DNA of 7,008 bases from Nitrososphaerota archaeon (lineage in GTDB: Archaea > Thermoproteota > Nitrososphaeria > Nitrososphaerales > UBA57). Location of the stretch: positions 1-7,008 of the forward strand of contig PAVW01000002.1 in the NCBI GenBank assembly GCA_002713205.1. Reading direction: 5' to 3'. Of this stretch, positions 1 to 6,446 are shown piece by piece (the first letter of the stretch is position 1; each line of letters opens with the position of its first letter). The notes beneath the pieces are model-generated. The model was not told the DNA's origin, ran no database searches, and was given only the letters and a program-made list of their open reading frames with translations. A program made the translations under genes and the position numbers.

Positions 1-14
1 TTAAAGAGTTGAGC

Positions 15-1664
15 ATGAAAGTACTTCTCATAGTTCCTGAAATTCGTCTAGACATGTCTCCACAACATGTTCCATTTTGGGCAGGAATCTTAGGCGCCAT
101 TGTTGAAAAAAAAGGCGGAGATGTAGGTATTTTAGATCTAAATGCATTACGAATGAATTATGATGGTAACACAGTACCATCAAATGTTATAGTTGAAGAA
201 ATTAGTTCAGAAAAATGGGATATTGTTGGAATTGGAGGTCTAACTACAACATACAAAAGAATAAAACAACTTGCTCCATTGATTCGTAAATGTTGTCCTG
301 ATTCATTGTTTATTGGTGGGGGCGGTTGGAGCACATACAATCCAGATGAGATACTTGAACTTATTCCAGAATTGGATTTAATTGTAATAGGTGAAGGAGA
401 AGAGACCTTTTCAGAATTATATGATAATGTCAGTGATAATCAGACTGATTTTCGTGGAATTGCAGGATTATGTCTACGAGAGACTAACGAATTGTATTTT
501 ACAGCACCAAGAGCTCTAATTCCTGATCTAAATACAATCCCCTATCCATCATACGATCTATTTGAAAATGAAATTTATTTCAAATATTCATCGATTCCAA
601 TGTCAGTTGAATCTTATAATGCACAAAGACGATTTTCGGTGGTTTGGGAAAGAGGATGTCCACGGGGATGTACATTTTGTTCACATAACGGAATGTCCAG
701 GATAGACTTACAGAATATTTATGGTTCAGGAGACAGATTAAAAGGAGAAAAACGTGTTAGGAAAATAGATGAAGAAGAGGGAACATTTCAATTACCAGCA
801 AGATGGCCATCACCTCAGTATGCAGTTGATAACATAAAATTATTAGTTGACAAATATGATTGCGACTTTATTTCTATAATGGATGAAAATATGACTAGTA
901 ATTTGAAATGGACTAAAGAGTTCTGTACATTATACATGGATGAAGGTTTGGATAAAATTTTAAAATGGGGAACCCTAGGAGATGCACCTAGCGTAGCAAC
1001 AAAACCTTCAATTATTAAAACGATGCAAGATGCAGGTTGTGCTTACATTTCATTTGGATTTGAATCTGCATCAGATAGAGTTCTAAATGAGGATATACAA
1101 AAAGGACAGTTAAGATCTCATTTACAAACTACTATTAATACATTAAAAGAAGTAGGTATGACGCCAATTACTACATTCATGATTGGCAATCCAAATGAAG
1201 ACATTAACGACTTGATGGAAACGGTTGATTTTTGGATTAAAAATGGAGCAGAAGTAGATCCTTTCATTTGCACACCATATGTTGGAAGTCCTTTATTTTA
1301 CAATAATAGAGATTATGTTTTAGAACAATATGATGAAAGAATTCTATTAGTAAATCAAGGAAAGTTTTCAGTAGAAAATAGGATTCTAAAAAAAATGTAT
1401 TTAGAAGCATTGGATAAATTTATGGAAGATTGTGGCGATGCAACACAGTATACTGCAACTGTTAGTAAAAATTTTACAATTCCAGAATTAATTGCATTAA
1501 AACAATTCATGTATAATCATGATGTTCGAAGAATGCTTCAAATGGCAAACCAGAAGTATGAAGAAACAAAACTTCCACAATGGAAAGTAAGTGAAAAATG
1601 GAAAAAATATGATCCAAATCATAAAGCAAAAAAAGAATTAACTAAAATAATAGAATCTTTATGA
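15..1664 (+). CDS. B12-binding-domain radical SAM enzyme (class B radical SAM; possible cobalamin-dependent methyltransferase or rearrangement enzyme)
   Basis: Long ORF. The track starts at TTG 9, but the first ATG at 15 gives MKVLLIVPE, a typical N-terminus for this family. The frame is open to the window edge, so the start is not fully certain. The N-terminal ~140 aa follow the B12-binding domain pattern (KVLLIVPE...WDIVGIGGLTT...LFIGGGG...DLIVIGEGEETF). The radical SAM cluster motif C-PRG-C-TF-C (CX3CX2C) is encoded at 657-680, and downstream barrel-like motifs are present (ISFGFESASDRVL, FMIGNPNE). The stop overlaps the next start as ATGA at 1661-1664. Confidence 0.85.
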   Translation: MKVLLIVPEIRLDMSPQHVPFWAGILGAIVEKKGGDVGILDLNALRMNYDGNTVPSNVIVEEISSEKWDIVGIGGLTTTYKRIKQLAPLIRKCCPDSLFIGGGGWSTYNPDEILELIPELDLIVIGEGEETFSELYDNVSDNQTDFRGIAGLCLRETNELYFTAPRALIPDLNTIPYPSYDLFENEIYFKYSSIPMSVESYNAQRRFSVVWERGCPRGCTFCSHNGMSRIDLQNIYGSGDRLKGEKRVRKIDEEEGTFQLPARWPSPQYAVDNIKLLVDKYDCDFISIMDENMTSNLKWTKEFCTLYMDEGLDKILKWGTLGDAPSVATKPSIIKTMQDAGCAYISFGFESASDRVLNEDIQKGQLRSHLQTTINTLKEVGMTPITTFMIGNPNEDINDLMETVDFWIKNGAEVDPFICTPYVGSPLFYNNRDYVLEQYDERILLVNQGKFSVENRILKKMYLEALDKFMEDCGDATQYTATVSKNFTIPELIALKQFMYNHDVRRMLQMANQKYEETKLPQWKVSEKWKKYDPNHKAKKELTKIIESL

Positions 1665-2659
1665 GTACTCAAAGTAAAGAGCAACAACAAATAGGTTTTC
1701 TCTCATTATGCTATCATTACATTCGTCCAGATAATGATGATCCATTTTCAAGACTTATGGGTACAAAAATAACAGAATTTAAAAATCAAATTAAAATGTT
1801 AAAAGAGAAATTTGAAATGATTTCTTTAGATGATGTGTTAGAATTTATTAATGCTAAAATTTTTGAAAATAATAAATATAAAATGTTATTGACATTTGAT
1901 GATGGATTATCAGAGCATTACAATGCAGCGAAGATTTTAAAACAATTTGATATTAAAGCGACATTTTTTATTCCAACATGTATTCTGAAAGAAAGATTAC
2001 CAGCAAATCCTATGATAATTCATTACGTAATAGCAAAATATGGAATAGAAAAATTTTTAGAAGAATTTAGATATGCTTTAAAAAAACTTGGGCTGGAAAT
2101 AAAAAAATATGATATAACATATGTACGTGAAGATAATGACGTATGGAAAAAAATTGCTGAAATAAAATATAATTTCAAATACAAATTAGGATATAAAATA
2201 TCACGAGAAATACTTCTACATATTTATCAAAATTCTCTTCTAATAGAATACCCAAATATTTTAGAGATAATACATCTCAATAAAGAACAAATACATGAAA
2301 TGTTAGAGATGGGTCACAGAATTGGAGTTCATACACATACACATATTTCTGTAGCCGCAACAAGTTTATCAGATTCTGATTTTTTTAATGAAATTGTCTT
2401 TCCAAAAAAATATCTGGAAGATGAATTCAACGTTCCAATTAAATCATTTAGCTATCCATTTGGTGAAAGAAAGGATTATCTTTCATCTATGCGATTCTTA
2501 AATAAAACAAAAGAATATGATCTTGCTTTTACTGTAGAAGAAATAGTAAATTTTGGAAATACTCCATTGGAAATAGGAAGGTATCAGCCTATGAGTCATG
2601 ACAATGTAAGAACTTTAGAGAACAATTTATCTAACATAATTAAAAAAAATATTTTGTAA
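1661..2659 (+). CDS. Polysaccharide deacetylase family protein (NodB homology / CE4 fold; de-N-acetylase or deformylase)
   Basis: 332-aa ORF. NodB motif 1, LLTFDDGLSEHY, has TFDDG at 1892-1906 and is followed by ATFFIPT. The His-rich metal motif GVHTHTH (HxxxH) is at 2330-2344, and an FSYPFGE motif follows. About 90 aa of helical-looking insertion lie between motifs 1 and 2. The start overlaps the upstream stop (ATGA), and the stop overlaps the next start (TAATG at 2657-2661). Confidence 0.8.
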   Translation: MSTQSKEQQQIGFLSLCYHYIRPDNDDPFSRLMGTKITEFKNQIKMLKEKFEMISLDDVLEFINAKIFENNKYKMLLTFDDGLSEHYNAAKILKQFDIKATFFIPTCILKERLPANPMIIHYVIAKYGIEKFLEEFRYALKKLGLEIKKYDITYVREDNDVWKKIAEIKYNFKYKLGYKISREILLHIYQNSLLIEYPNILEIIHLNKEQIHEMLEMGHRIGVHTHTHISVAATSLSDSDFFNEIVFPKKYLEDEFNVPIKSFSYPFGERKDYLSSMRFLNKTKEYDLAFTVEEIVNFGNTPLEIGRYQPMSHDNVRTLENNLSNIIKKNIL

Positions 2660-3468
2660 TGAAGTTAGTTATTTTCACTAGTAATGGGATACGTCACAAA
2701 TACGTTGCAAACACACTTGCAAAATTTGTTGACGATATTTTGATTGTATCTGAATGTAGACAAAATGATGCTTCAGACAAAGAAACAGAAGGAAATCTTT
2801 CTCCAATAGATGAGCATTTTAGAAAACGATATTTGACTGAAAAAGTCATGTTTGCAGGAAATGATGTTTTCAAGGGAAATGTCCTACCTCTAGTTTACAA
2901 AGAAGCAAATTTGGAATATACATATCAAGTTGTAAAAGAGTTTGATCCGGATTTGATGATTGTGTTTGGTTCATCGATCATTAAAGAACCTCTTCTTTCA
3001 TTGAAACCTAATCGATTCATCAATCTTCATTTAGGATTATCTCCCTATTATCGAGGAAGCGGTACAAATTTTTGGCCTTTTGTTAATAAAGAATTGGAAT
3101 ATGTAGGTTCAACGATTTTACATTTAGATTCTGGTATTGACACGGGAGATATTCTTACTCACGTAAAACCTAATTTTGAAATTAATGATGATGTTCACAC
3201 AGTGGGATGCAAAGTAATTCAAGAAAGTGTGAATGTATTAAAAAAAATAATCGAGATGGTAAAGAAAAATACTGAATTAAATAGAATTAAGCAATGGGAA
3301 TTATCAGATTCAAAATATTATAAAAATAGTGATTTTAATGAAGAGATATTGAATTTATATAAAAAAAATTTGTCAGAAGGCTTGATAAAAAATTTTCTAG
3401 AAAAATCTGAAAATAAAATTAGAATCATCAACATAGATAATGATAAAAATGAGACAGACAGAAATTAA
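2659..3468 (+). CDS. Formyltransferase family protein (Formyl_trans_N fold; probable N10-formyl-tetrahydrofolate-dependent sugar N-formyltransferase)
   Basis: 269-aa ORF. The motif INLHLGLSPYYRGSG matches the canonical HxSLLPxYRG folate/catalytic loop, with the N-x-H codons at 3022-3030. The motif LDSGIDTGDIL supplies the catalytic Asp (codon at 3139-3141). The Asn-to-Asp spacing of 39 residues is close to that in Fmt/PurN-type enzymes. There is no obvious Fmt-type C-terminal tRNA-binding domain. Confidence 0.8.
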   Translation: MKLVIFTSNGIRHKYVANTLAKFVDDILIVSECRQNDASDKETEGNLSPIDEHFRKRYLTEKVMFAGNDVFKGNVLPLVYKEANLEYTYQVVKEFDPDLMIVFGSSIIKEPLLSLKPNRFINLHLGLSPYYRGSGTNFWPFVNKELEYVGSTILHLDSGIDTGDILTHVKPNFEINDDVHTVGCKVIQESVNVLKKIIEMVKKNTELNRIKQWELSDSKYYKNSDFNEEILNLYKKNLSEGLIKNFLEKSENKIRIINIDNDKNETDRN

Positions 3469-4225
3469 AGAAGCTGTAATAATTACTGCAAGAATTAGTT
3501 CAAAACGTCTTCCAAACAAGACTATAATGGAAGTAAAAGGTCTGAAATCAATTGAGATTACAATTGAAAGAGCTAAAAAAATTGGTCATCAAGTAATTTT
3601 AGCAACAAGTAATGATAAATTAGATGATGTCTTAGTTGATATCACAAAGAAATGTGGAATAGAAATTTTTAGAGGTTCACTTTCAAATAAAATTAAAAGA
3701 TGTCATGATTGTTTCAAAAAATTCAAGATTGATAATGCATTATTGATAGAAGGTGCTGACATTTGTTATGATTTTAATATTGGAATTAGAGCGTTAACTG
3801 AATTAAGAGAAACAGATTCAGAGATTATTTGGTGTCCAAAGGAGATAATTACAGGTCTTTTTACTTTGGCTATGAGTAAATCCGCAATAGAAGAATTGTA
3901 TGAGCTTGTTCCTTCAGAAAATTTTGATACTGATGTATTTACTCACTTATTTGATAAGATGAAGGCAAAAGTCTCATTTGTTAAATTAAATAAAAATGAA
4001 AAAAATAAAGAGATTAGATTAACTATAGATTATCAAGAAGATTTAGATTTTTTTAGGAAAGTTTATCAGAATTTTTCAATTACGGAAGATAGTTCAGTCA
4101 TAATCAAATATTTGTTAGAAAATCCATCAATATGTAAAATGAATTATTTTAGAGAAAAAGATTATCTTGAAAATAAAGAGAACATGATGAAAGATTTCAA
4201 CAATAATAAAAAAAATAGTGAGTAA
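3440..4225 (+). CDS. Cytidylyltransferase family protein (SpsF/NeuA-like; probable CMP-nonulosonate synthetase)
   Basis: 261-aa ORF. The N-terminal motif AVIITARISSKRLPNK matches the ARxxSxRLPxK signature of the CTP_transf_3 / SpsF (COG1861) group. The C-terminal motif RLTIDYQEDLDFFRKVY matches the conserved TxDxxEDxxxxR motif of the same group. The start is ambiguous: ATG at 3440 or ATG at 3449. Either one overlaps the 3' end of the formyltransferase gene, by 29 or 20 nt. Confidence 0.75.
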   Translation: MIKMRQTEIKEAVIITARISSKRLPNKTIMEVKGLKSIEITIERAKKIGHQVILATSNDKLDDVLVDITKKCGIEIFRGSLSNKIKRCHDCFKKFKIDNALLIEGADICYDFNIGIRALTELRETDSEIIWCPKEIITGLFTLAMSKSAIEELYELVPSENFDTDVFTHLFDKMKAKVSFVKLNKNEKNKEIRLTIDYQEDLDFFRKVYQNFSITEDSSVIIKYLLENPSICKMNYFREKDYLENKENMMKDFNNNKKNSE

Positions 4226-4267
4226 TTCGTATTAATAATATGTTTAAGTGGAAGTAATTATATTCAA
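4226..4267 (+). promoter_or_regulatory. Possible internal promoter in the only intergenic gap of the operon (TATA-like boxes)
   Basis: A 42-nt AT-rich gap lies between the cytidylyltransferase stop (4223-4225) and the first neuB ATG (4268). TAATAATA at 4233-4240 lies about 30 nt upstream of ATG 4268. TTATAT at 4258-4263 lies about 25 nt upstream of ATG 4286. That is the spacing expected for an archaeal TATA box driving a leaderless mRNA. TATA-like strings are frequent in DNA this AT-rich, so this is weak evidence. Confidence 0.25.
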
Positions 4268-5326
4268 ATGCTTAATTGTGTTTTTATGGATGAACCAGAA
4301 ATAGTTCTTGATTCTAAGAGAATTGGAAGAAAACATAGACCACTTGTGATAGCTGAAATTGGAATTAATCATGAGGGAAAAATTGAGAAAGCAAAAAAAA
4401 TGATACAAGATGTCTATGATGCAGGTGCAGAATGTGTAAAATTTCAATCACATATTATAGATGATGAAATGATTCCAACTGATGTGATTCCTGGAAATTC
4501 AGATGAGACAATCTGGGAGATTGTTAAGAGATGTTCGTTTTCAGAAAAGGATGAGATGTCATTAAAAAAATTTGTTGATAGTTTAGGAATGATTTATCTT
4601 TCAACACCATTTTCTCGTGAATCAGCTGACAGATTAGAAAGAATGAATGTTATCGGATATAAAATTGGTTCAGGAGAATGTAATAATTATCCATTAATTG
4701 AACATATTGCTGAATTTGGAAAACCCGTAATTATTAGTACTGGAATGAACGATATAGAAAGCATATCAAAAAGTGTTAAGATTTGTAGAGAATCAAATAT
4801 TCCATTTGCGTTGATGCATGTAACATCAATGTATCCAACTCCATACGAACATGTACGTCTTGGTGCCATGACACACATTGCAGAAGAATTTCCTGATGCA
4901 GTAATAGGTTTGAGCGACCATTCAATTGGTAATTACACATGTTTTGCAGGAGTTGCTTTAGGTGCATCAATTCTAGAAAAACATTTTACATCAGACAAGT
5001 CATGGAGTGGACCAGATGTTCCAATCTCAATTGATCCTAGTGAATTAAAAAATTTAATCAACGGAGTAGATTCCATTTATAAATCACTGGGAGGAAAAAA
5101 AGAAATTCTCTCAGAAGAGCAACCAACAATTAATTTTGCATATTCATGTGTTGTAGCAATCAGAGACATTGAGATTGGTGAAAATCTATCAAAAGAAAAT
5201 GTATGGGTCAAACGTCCAGGTACCGGAGAGATACTTGCAAAAGATTTTCAGAAAGTATTAGAATATAAAGCAAAAATGAAAATTTCTAAAAATACTCAGA
5301 TAAAGTGGAATATGATTGAAAAATAA
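4268..5326 (+). CDS. neuB: Nonulosonic acid synthase, NeuB family (N-acetylneuraminate / legionaminate synthase) with C-terminal SAF domain
   Basis: 352-aa ORF with the full set of NeuB family motifs: PLVIAEIGINHEG, AGAECVKFQSH, LSTPFS, YKIGSGE, VIISTGM, ALMHVTSMYP, GLSDHSIG, LEKHFT. A SAF-like C-terminus follows (VVAIRDIEIGENLSKENVWVKRPGTG). An alternative start at ATG 4286 (MDEPEIVL...) is equally plausible. The neuB symbol denotes the family only; the Neu versus Leg type is unresolved. Confidence 0.92.
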   Translation: MLNCVFMDEPEIVLDSKRIGRKHRPLVIAEIGINHEGKIEKAKKMIQDVYDAGAECVKFQSHIIDDEMIPTDVIPGNSDETIWEIVKRCSFSEKDEMSLKKFVDSLGMIYLSTPFSRESADRLERMNVIGYKIGSGECNNYPLIEHIAEFGKPVIISTGMNDIESISKSVKICRESNIPFALMHVTSMYPTPYEHVRLGAMTHIAEEFPDAVIGLSDHSIGNYTCFAGVALGASILEKHFTSDKSWSGPDVPISIDPSELKNLINGVDSIYKSLGGKKEILSEEQPTINFAYSCVVAIRDIEIGENLSKENVWVKRPGTGEILAKDFQKVLEYKAKMKISKNTQIKWNMIEK

Positions 5327-6446
5327 AAAATTAGTTTTCATTACAGGGACAAGAGCGGATTTTGGTAAATTAAAACCATTAATTGATGTTGTGGAAAATT
5401 CAGATTTGTTTGATTGTTACATTTTTGCAACAGGTATGCATACATTAAAGAGATATGGTCATACATATTCTGAAATTAAAAAACAAAAATACAAAAATTT
5501 GATTGTATATAAAAATCAGAAAAATTCTGATCATGATTTGATTTTGGCTGATACAATTAAGGGTTTTTCAAAATTTGTTAAAGAAATCAAACCAGATATG
5601 ATAATTGTTCATGGAGATAGATTAGAACCACTTGCAGGTGCGATTGTAGGATTATTCAGTGGAGTACTAGTAGGGCACATAGAAGGGGGAGAAATATCAG
5701 GCACAGTGGATGAGATAATTAGACATGGTATAACCAAATTATCACACATTCATTTTGTATCAAATTTAGAAGCAAAAAAAAGAATTATGCAGATGGGTGA
5801 AAATACAAAATCATCTTTCATCATAGGTTCTCCAGAAATTGAAATAATGAAAGAAAGTATACTACCAAAAATACAAGATACAAAAATGAGATATAATATT
5901 CCATACGAGTCTTACGCAATTTTTATTTTTCATCCAGTTGTTACAGAATTTCATAGTACTAGAAAACAGATAAAACAAATTATTTTGGGATTAAAAGAAT
6001 CTAAGAGGAAATTTATTATAATTTATCCAAATAATGATAAAGGTTCAGATATTATAATTGAAGAGATTAAGAAATTAAGAGGAAATAAAAATTTTAGAAT
6101 TTTTCCATCATTAAGATTCAAATATTTTTTGTCATTATTGAAAAATGCTGATTTTGTGATAGGAAATTCTAGTACAGTAGTTAGAGAAGCTGAGGTTTAT
6201 GGTACTCCTGCTATCAATATAGGAACAAGACAAAATAATAGAAATAAAAATAAAGAAATAATTAATATTTTTCCAAATAGAAATGAAATACTTAAAGTAA
6301 TACAAAAAATTAATGGAAAAAGATTCAAACCAAAATCATATTTTTATCCTGTTAAGAGTTGTTCTGCTGAATTTTATAAAATTTTATTAAAAGATGAGAT
6401 ATGGAAAATTAATTTACAAAAACAGTTTAAGGATATTAAAATTTAA
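5316..6446 (+). CDS. neuC: UDP-N-acetylglucosamine 2-epimerase, hydrolysing type (NeuC/LegG family)
   Basis: 376-aa ORF. The N-terminus KKLVFITGTRADFGKLKPL, the HGDRLEPLAGA motif, and HIEGGEISGTVDEIIRHGITKLSHIHF match the NeuC-type GGE..G..DE..RH..TK.SH.HF signature rather than the non-hydrolysing WecB-type signature. The start must be TTG at 5316, because an in-frame TGA sits at 5313-5315 and the next ATG is codon 41. The gene overlaps the neuB 3' end by 11 nt. Confidence 0.9.
   Translation: MKNKKLVFITGTRADFGKLKPLIDVVENSDLFDCYIFATGMHTLKRYGHTYSEIKKQKYKNLIVYKNQKNSDHDLILADTIKGFSKFVKEIKPDMIIVHGDRLEPLAGAIVGLFSGVLVGHIEGGEISGTVDEIIRHGITKLSHIHFVSNLEAKKRIMQMGENTKSSFIIGSPEIEIMKESILPKIQDTKMRYNIPYESYAIFIFHPVVTEFHSTRKQIKQIILGLKESKRKFIIIYPNNDKGSDIIIEEIKKLRGNKNFRIFPSLRFKYFLSLLKNADFVIGNSSTVVREAEVYGTPAINIGTRQNNRNKNKEIINIFPNRNEILKVIQKINGKRFKPKSYFYPVKSCSAEFYKILLKDEIWKINLQKQFKDIKI

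Follow-up and report, generated by a model that had tools for sequence, protein, structure and literature searches.

What does a class B radical S-adenosylmethionine (SAM) enzyme do in a gene cluster for nonulosonic acids (NulOs)? The question is raised by the first 7,008 bases (the window, i.e. the whole stretch of DNA analysed here) of the 16.5-kb contig PAVW01000002.1 (G000:C2) from a Nitrososphaerota archaeon (GCA_002713205.1, here genome G000; 0.92 Mb, 76% complete). Six genes, with ends that overlap or nearly abut, lie on its forward strand, and the first of them, open reading frame 1 (ORF1), encodes a radical SAM enzyme with a B12-binding domain. ORF1 is a member of an uncharacterised class B radical SAM clade marked by a helical insert, and its gene belongs, with a small open reading frame (ORF) and a gene for a Maf-like protein, to one three-gene module, which is an optional add-on to NulO pathways in marine ammonia-oxidising-type archaea.

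ORF1 runs on the forward strand from a TTG at position 9 or an ATG at position 15 to position 1664; the ATG was taken as the start, since MKVL begins all orthologues. The B12-binding domain and the CX3CX2C motif of the original prediction were both recovered, as PF02310 and PF04055 score above their cut-offs (for PF04055, Radical_SAM, 57.1 bits against 29.5, at residues 213-406) and the cluster cysteines are Cys215, Cys219 and Cys222. Together with the fold of solved members, described below, these features place ORF1 in class B, a group of enzymes in which the cobalamin ligands leave no motif recognisable in the sequence. Models of BchE, KedN5 and P-methyltransferases in NCBIfam align to residues 13-227, and it is on such cobalamin-dependent enzyme models (BchE 125.8 bits, KedN5, P-methyltransferases), not on AprD4, that the N-terminal domain scores highest; the AprD4 family model (NF033070) gave 20.7 bits against a cut-off of 500, at residues 333-430 only. 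The last 130 or so residues, in which no motif had been recognised earlier, turned out to be a predicted helical domain into which alignments with OxsB and TokK extend (Table 1). Nitrosopumilaceae orthologues carry a C-x-x-C in this part (Y-C-E-V-C-K, alignment columns 530-540), and the window protein (Y-D-P-N-H-K at residues 528-533, nt 1596-1611) and its relatives of 83-85% identity do not, hence this motif is inessential to the family.

An AlphaFold2 model computed from the single sequence (predicted local distance difference test, pLDDT, 39) was discarded, and a model based on an alignment of 121 sequences (pLDDT 95.9, predicted template modelling score 0.92) was used instead. Foldseek and VIA-align placed this model among the two-domain B12-type radical SAM enzymes. 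The structures matched were: (i) AprD4, the best by Z (Z 27.2; root-mean-square deviation 2.8 over 411 residues), (ii) OxsB (Z 26.2), (iii) TsrM (Z 24.4), (iv) CysS (Z 24.3), (v) TokK (Z 24.0), (vi) the protein-modifying class B enzyme MgmA (Z 23.9) and (vii) MiaB (Z 19).

The feature that sets ORF1 apart follows the cluster motif. The codon of the last cluster cysteine, Cys222, occupies nt 678-680, exactly as first reported, and 40 residues separate it from Arg263 (nt 801-803) of the R-W-P-S-P stretch, again in line with the earlier count of about 40 residues up to an R-x-x-S-P stretch. To these residues the original prediction had attributed an insertion of 25-30 amino acids. Its length was assessed in 111 full-length representatives of 50%-identity clusters (exhaustive phmmer search), aligned with MAFFT: the gap corresponding to Cys222-Arg263 has 6-11 residues in 90 of them and 18-41 in the other 21, the query included. 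HMMER alignments with the NCBIfam class B models, with the PDB chains of TokK and CysS and with most representatives stop at residues 223-230 and restart further on, and many of the NCBIfam class B matches are accordingly split into two stretches flanking the insert. Because of these linker counts and of the alignments that break at this point, an insertion of about 30 residues relative to the family mode is real, and the family linker of 12-15 residues given originally has to be corrected, to nearer 8. The insert is ordered, and is not a charged linker of a floppy or variable kind. When orthologues of 66-85% identity are compared, both ends of the stretch Cys222-Pro265 (C-S-H-N-G-M-S-R-x-D-L-Q-N-I-Y-G and T-F-Q-L-P-A-R-W-P) hardly change, and its charged middle, with a charged run from G239 to G256 (nt 729-782), is similar between them; in the alignment-based model it forms two helices (residues 229-236 and 241-255) with a pLDDT of 82-90.

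A FastTree phylogeny built on the alignment columns without the linker gathered 22 of the 23 long-linker proteins in a single clade (support 0.98), comprised of the window subfamily, a subfamily of 47% identity and the subfamily to which a 31%-identical paralogue from the same genome (on G000:C8) belongs. The suspicion that the linker might be ordinary for a well-populated subfamily was therefore borne out in part: it is ordinary within the window subfamily, which has more than 1000 homologues, but none of these is characterised, and the insertion stands when measured against the family mode. Within the insert clade, a sister subgroup (P0196, P0207 and P0213; also P0184, P0204 and P0225) lacks all three cluster cysteines, and three of its cysteine-less members retain the insert motif (S-R-W-D-M ... 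W-G). They resemble catalytically dead relatives of radical SAM enzymes.

The partners of the enzyme were sought by calling and clustering ORFs in 99 related loci which, as relatives, are non-independent samples. Directly upstream of the radical SAM gene and on the same strand, 92 of these loci carry the Maf-like gene (median gap 56 nt), and just 5' of the latter at least 65 carry the small ORF (median gap 30 nt); linkage of these three genes constitutes the module. The small ORF (54-64 residues) carries a conserved MK(T/A)NF motif at its N-terminus, is variable in the middle, with differences in length that keep the frame, and has a near-invariant, acidic C-terminal part of 40 residues, which includes G-S-F-M-V-Y-R-S. 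The conserved ends and the in-frame variable middle indicate that it is a real gene; in the ESM Atlas, its product matched unnamed clusters only. The Maf-like protein was recognised by PF01973 (49.8 bits, cut-off 34.6) and its alignment with the flagellin NulO modification protein PseD covers about 280 residues in the middle of the latter (PseD model, residues 5-316, E 1.4e-8, under the full-length cut-off).

The view of ORF1 as the head of an operon did not survive these comparisons. Since the window begins at a contig end, the apparent operon head is an assembly artefact: the metagenome contig L025 (positions 6852-13859) matches the window gaplessly with 99.46% identity and continues for 6.85 kb upstream, a region that is missing from the G000 assembly and contains the small ORF and the Maf-like gene. 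The junction of the Maf-like and radical SAM genes is bridged, with zero mismatches, by a contig from an independent marine run. In a word search, at least 68% of the sampled 31-letter words of the stretch were present in 18 runs (seawater, marine or hydrothermal vent metagenomes, one of them labelled just 'organism A' and two possibly the source of this DNA). Two RNA-labelled runs yielded short contigs inside the gene (L025 7137-7785), which, as contigs, cannot show transcription, DNA carry-over being possible. Likewise, the neighbouring cytidylyltransferase, originally regarded as the telling partner, has to give way to the conserved pair upstream, i.e. the Maf/DUF115-like protein and the protein of about 60 residues. 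A second class B enzyme (L025:3444-5495; 10-residue linker), seen only in this lineage, lies directly 5' of the small ORF; its top NCBIfam match, KedN5, is a C-methyltransferase family.

The linkage is kept even where the genes have been rearranged, as in the 47% subfamily, in which the order is radical SAM gene, 0-2 genes, small ORF and Maf-like gene. A paralogous module in the same genome (G000:C8:15318-16709, with 454-618 and 590-1504 of L002) consists of a 54-aa ORF, which is 55-60% conserved in two other genomes, a homologous Maf-like gene (E 7e-15) and the 31%-identical B12 radical SAM gene, whose product has a 31-residue insert. When the small ORF of this module was compared by BLASTP with that of the ORF1 module, no similarity was detected, and homology is not claimed for them. 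The paralogous module ends a pathway of the legionaminic/pseudaminic acid (Leg/Pse) type, and a SPASM-type radical SAM gene adjoins it on the opposite strand. In a Nitrosopumilaceae genome (G022 (= G212):C9:170586-193188), two Maf-like/radical SAM pairs lie 20 kb apart with NeuB genes between them, the radical SAM copies being 66% and 71% identical to the query. A scan of viral contigs with alignment A4 found no relative.

A link of the enzyme to NulO genes, already proposed from the window, proved to be strong. All 9 enzyme-bearing genomes among the 121 sampled from Nitrosopumilaceae belong to the 40 that have NeuB-family genes (a count that rests partly on G089, flagged as unpublished), and the distance between the enzyme gene and NeuB genes is 1-20 kb wherever the context is assembled. 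A gene for NeuB, NeuC or a cytidine monophosphate (CMP) transferase was found in 27 of the 29 loci of at least 15 kb; a CTP_transf_3 gene, of the ordinary CMP-NulO synthetase type, occurs within 8 kb of the enzyme in 26 of these long loci, its position beside the enzyme not being fixed. The genes that follow ORF1 in the window are less constant. The radical SAM gene is followed by a DegT aminotransferase in 17 loci, by an opposite-strand 4,6-dehydratase in 11 and by the deacetylase in 2, and among the 29 long loci a deacetylase is present in 7 and a formyltransferase in 5. The downstream deacetylase, formyltransferase, cytidylyltransferase, NeuB and NeuC are variable, optional companions of the module. 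Full-text searches of the library consulted returned no paper that links radical SAM enzymes with NulOs.

The radical SAM gene is an accessory with a patchy distribution. Where the genome is named, related loci belong to Nitrosopumilaceae and other Thaumarchaeota (66-72% identity), and the orthologues are unusually well conserved across genera (66-85%). At E ≤ 1e-20 the gene was matched in 9/121 Nitrosopumilaceae genomes, by seven orthologues of 66-72% identity, one homologue of 47% and two of 34-36%, one genome having two copies; at E ≤ 1e-30, with 401 genomes of the phylum covered, Nitrosopumilaceae was the only family to have it (10/61 genomes), and 0/14 other genomes of the window's own family carry it. 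The Maf-like protein is encoded in 8/121 Nitrosopumilaceae genomes, all of them among the 9 that have the enzyme; in the ninth, a contig end truncates the copy. One orthologue of 72% identity (L003, JAJFIL010000137.1, 2.6 kb) stands on a short contig binned to an alphaproteobacterial metagenome-assembled genome, which is probably a binning error, as all other named hosts are Thaumarchaeota.

Table 1 Features of ORF1, of the window and of the upstream part of metagenome contig L025 (positions refer to the window unless L025 is named).
Feature	Position (nt)	Strand	Remarks
Class B (B12-binding domain) radical SAM enzyme (ORF1)	15-1664	+	549 aa; PF02310 and PF04055 above cut-off; model pLDDT 95.9
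Rossmann-type B12-binding domain	63-419	+	residues 17-135; PF02310, 51.7 bits (cut-off 32.1)
CX3CX2C [4Fe-4S] motif	657-680	+	Cys215, Cys219, Cys222; almost invariant in homologue alignment
40-residue segment with ~30-residue clade-specific insertion	681-800	+	residues 223-262; two predicted helices (229-236, 241-255)
C-terminal helical domain	1272-1661	+	residues ~420-549; predicted helices 426-548; OxsB/TokK alignments reach model residues 542-545
Polysaccharide deacetylase family protein (CE4/NodB type)	1661-2659	+	PF01522, 61.2 bits; start overlaps ORF1 stop
Formyltransferase-like protein	2659-3468	+	PF00551, 44.8 bits
CMP-sugar-type cytidylyltransferase (CTP_transf_3)	3440-4225	+	PF02348, 54.7 bits
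NeuB-type NulO synthase with SAF domain	4268-5326	+	PF03102, 236 bits
NeuC-type hydrolysing uridine diphosphate (UDP)-sugar 2-epimerase	5316-6446	+	TIGR03568, 385 bits, above cut-off
Multi-pass membrane protein, 3' part of 377 aa	6451-7008, on to 7584 of the contig	-	without family match
eIF-2B family protein	L025 323-1357	-	
Sugar isomerase (SIS domains)	L025 1403-2470		
GT2 glycosyltransferase	L025 2505-3401		
KedN5-like class B radical SAM enzyme	L025 3444-5495		683 aa; best NCBIfam match KedN5, 187.6 bits, below cut-off
Small ORF	L025 5608-5787		59 aa
PF01973 (MptE/Maf, DUF115) protein	L025 5822-6811		329 aa
Insert-bearing radical SAM gene	L025 from 6866		~50-nt spacer after Maf-like gene

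The remaining genes of the window are listed in Table 1. The NeuB-type synthase scores higher with the NCBIfam model NeuB_NnaB (348.6 bits) than with PseI (231.7 bits), and beyond the window the contig encodes two further NeuB-family proteins, two further cytidylyltransferases, a GDSL hydrolase, a GNAT protein, a class III aminotransferase and a short-chain dehydrogenase/reductase (SDR), a content which makes the entire contig part of a NulO glycan island. Short NeuB-family proteins (233-250 aa, without SAF domain, 84-119 bits) are repeatedly encoded near the module in many related loci (e.g. G000:C2:7679-8410, just past the window, and L008:11774-12517), often paired with a second, shorter cytidylyltransferase. 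For the 377-aa membrane protein (6451-7584, reverse strand), Pfam and NCBIfam searches gave zero matches; it turns up again in a few related islands (L022, L025 and L032) and may be a flippase or polymerase for the glycan.

Two findings reported for other organisms bear on the chemistry. The legionaminic-acid-type cluster of Ca. Kuenenia stuttgartiensis has a deacetylase and formyltransferase pair, and its CMP-sugar bears a free amine and an N-formyl group, while Magnetospirillum has CMP-activated ten-carbon ulosonic acids that form a +14.016 Da series, with no enzyme assigned (preprint 10.64898/2026.04.20.719630). The function that we tentatively favour, at a probability a little short of even, is the cobalamin-dependent C-methylation of a NulO or of its precursor, with the Maf-like protein as a partner; that cobalamin is used and a methyl group transferred, which substrate is involved and what the insert does are what we infer here. 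It is preferred because of (i) the class B architecture of ORF1, (ii) the N-terminal domain, which scores best against cobalamin enzymes and (iii) the enzyme-less +14.016 Da ten-carbon series. In such a reaction, the [4Fe-4S] cluster would cut SAM to give a 5'-deoxyadenosyl radical, which would take a hydrogen from an unactivated carbon of the NulO, of its nucleotide-sugar precursor or of the CMP-activated form, and methylcobalamin bound in the N-terminal domain would then supply the methyl group. The product would be a C-methylated, possibly chain-extended sugar, which the Maf-like partner would pass to an acceptor. The small acidic protein, the Maf-like protein or the substrate would probably dock on the insert, whose basic helix could, we infer, form a docking pair with the acidic small protein. 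A CMP-linked NulO, the substrate proposed originally, is possible, and is singled out by none of the present results. The host belongs to the ocean's main vitamin B12 producers.

A bolder form of this proposal, to which we give a lower and rather modest probability, makes the module the missing machinery for the C-methylated, chain-extended (ten-carbon and longer) ulosonic acids of the Magnetospirillum-type +14 Da series; a single methylation or repeated ones would take place at the terminal carbon of a sugar of the Leg, Pse or neuraminic acid (Neu) type, or of its hexose precursor. If true, both the class of sugars and the class of substrates for cobalamin radical SAM enzymes would be new. 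Many bacteria and archaea bear NulOs on their surfaces, where these sugars influence recognition by phages and hosts, and mass spectrometry surveys repeatedly yield NulO variants beyond the known enzymes. A cobalamin radical SAM enzyme coupled to a Maf-like transferase within such pathways would add carbon-carbon bond chemistry to the biosynthesis of sialic-acid-like sugars and provide a genetic handle on the unexplained NulO forms. The module is compact and is present in the genome of an available enrichment culture, Ca. Nitrosopumilus salarius BD31 (locus L013).

Several observations weigh against NulO methylation. All 21 NCBIfam matches of ORF1, among the curated families BchE, KedN5, PhpK, HpnR, HpnJ, BzaD, MgmA and others, are far under their cut-offs, the best one, BchE, reaching 125.8 bits of the 481 demanded. 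The top match by Z, AprD4, has the same two-domain fold and is a cobalamin-free enzyme that dehydrates a sugar diol, so that the fold does not imply methylation. A search of the PDB with the profile of the Maf-like protein returned only the pyrophosphokinase MptE, matched in a nucleotide-binding motif of 56 residues, whereas solved Maf chains did not appear; with this short match and the lack of a Maf chain, a transferase role is putative. It could also be that the conserved small protein is what the enzyme acts on. Finally, the linkage with NulO genes could partly reflect the sharing of one island by all accessory surface-glycan genes and, since related loci do not count as independent samples and glycan genes group in islands anyway, it shows membership of a pathway and not a chemical step.

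In the first alternative, the enzyme would modify the small protein of about 60 residues, or another protein, in the manner of Mmp10, MgmA and PoyC, class B radical SAM enzymes whose methylation targets are residues of proteins or peptides, and the Maf-like protein would add a NulO to the same protein. The small ORF is clearly conserved at the protein level, both in its MK(T/A)NF motif and in its near-invariant last 40 residues, and always adjoins the Maf-like gene, and the protein-modifying MgmA is among the structural matches of the model. Maf proteins are protein O-glycosyltransferases, for which a small cis-encoded helper, GlfM, is documented (bioRxiv 10.1101/2023.12.03.569772). Nevertheless, a leader/core layout and a cleavage motif are missing from the small protein, as is a transporter linked to it; conservation extends over its entire C-terminal half, as would be the case for a folded partner, and similarity to its counterpart in the paralogous module is undetectable. 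The strict nesting of the enzyme in NulO-positive genomes suits a role in sugar metabolism at least equally well, and a protein substrate is regarded as unlikely.

To the same low degree of probability belongs a radical reaction on a sugar that does not methylate it, be it an AprD4-like diol dehydration or deoxygenation, an epimerisation or an OxsB-like rearrangement, with or without cobalamin. The two leading structural matches, AprD4 and OxsB (Z 27.2 and 26.2), point in this direction, and BchE, the top NCBIfam match, is likewise no methylase. The methylases TsrM (24.4), CysS (24.3) and TokK (24.0) are, however, within about 3 Z units of AprD4, whose family model gave just the 20.7 bits mentioned above, for the C-terminal part only, and the characterised class B enzymes are mostly methylases. 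The distribution data make a third alternative highly improbable, namely that ORF1 is a B12 radical SAM enzyme for lipid tailoring (related to the glycerol dialkyl glycerol tetraether (GDGT) ring synthase Grs, the methylases Gmm/Cgm or the desaturase Ted) which merely lies beside the glycan island: archaeal B12-binding radical SAM enzymes do cyclise, methylate and desaturate tetraether lipids (bioRxiv 10.1101/2025.10.20.683597), Grs homologues are reported for Thaumarchaeota (PMC8473941) and the orthologues of ORF1 are unusually conserved (66-85% identity across genera), but cyclised GDGTs are general in ammonia-oxidising archaea whereas the gene is patchy (9/121, 10/61 and 0/14 in the window's own family), its presence in under a tenth of genomes argues against a core lipid function, and it co-occurs with the Maf-like gene and NeuB, not with lipid genes.

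Comparison with known systems places the preferred reading, C-methylation of a NulO or its precursor, in context. By layout, the cluster of Ca. Kuenenia stuttgartiensis (deacetylase, formyltransferase, neuB, CMP-transferase and a neuC/legG-like gene) has the gene set of positions 1661-6446 of the window; unlike in the window, no radical SAM gene is mentioned there. In the Maf-2/GlfM systems for flagellin sialylation (Shewanella, Kurthia), the gene of a small helper protein accompanies that of a short Maf-type protein next to Pse/Leg genes; the module described here likewise pairs a Maf-like protein, which matches PF01973 and aligns to PseD, with a small one. GlfM, however, is an 89-residue four-helix bundle encoded downstream, whereas the small ORF described here has 54-64 residues, lies upstream and has no detected similarity to it; moreover, the published system includes no radical SAM enzyme, and the present hosts are archaea. 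AprD4, the best structural match to ORF1, is a radical SAM 1,2-diol dehydratase of apramycin biosynthesis that acts on an amino sugar and is cobalamin-independent.

Methylation of an unactivated carbon is the reaction of two further cobalamin-dependent enzymes of class B, GenK (the gentamicin C6' C-methyltransferase) and Fom3 (fosfomycin), the former on a sugar and the latter on a CMP-linked substrate (cytidylylated 2-hydroxyethylphosphonate). They share the domain order of ORF1, whose context includes CMP-transferase genes. Neither of them is known to have a helical insert of about 30 residues after the cluster motif, and they have, in contrast to ORF1, no obligate Maf-like or small-protein partner; NulOs would be a new substrate class. 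The closest parallels among solved methylases are TokK, CysS and TsrM, which act on a carbapenem, a carrier-bound benzoate and tryptophan, respectively. They have the same three-part fold as ORF1 (Z 24.0-24.4, 415-422 aligned residues, Foldseek E down to 1.9e-20), with only 16-18% identity, and the phmmer alignments of TokK and CysS to ORF1 end at residues 223-230, where the insert begins. Both of these enzymes perform successive methyl additions, which would suit a +14 Da product series.

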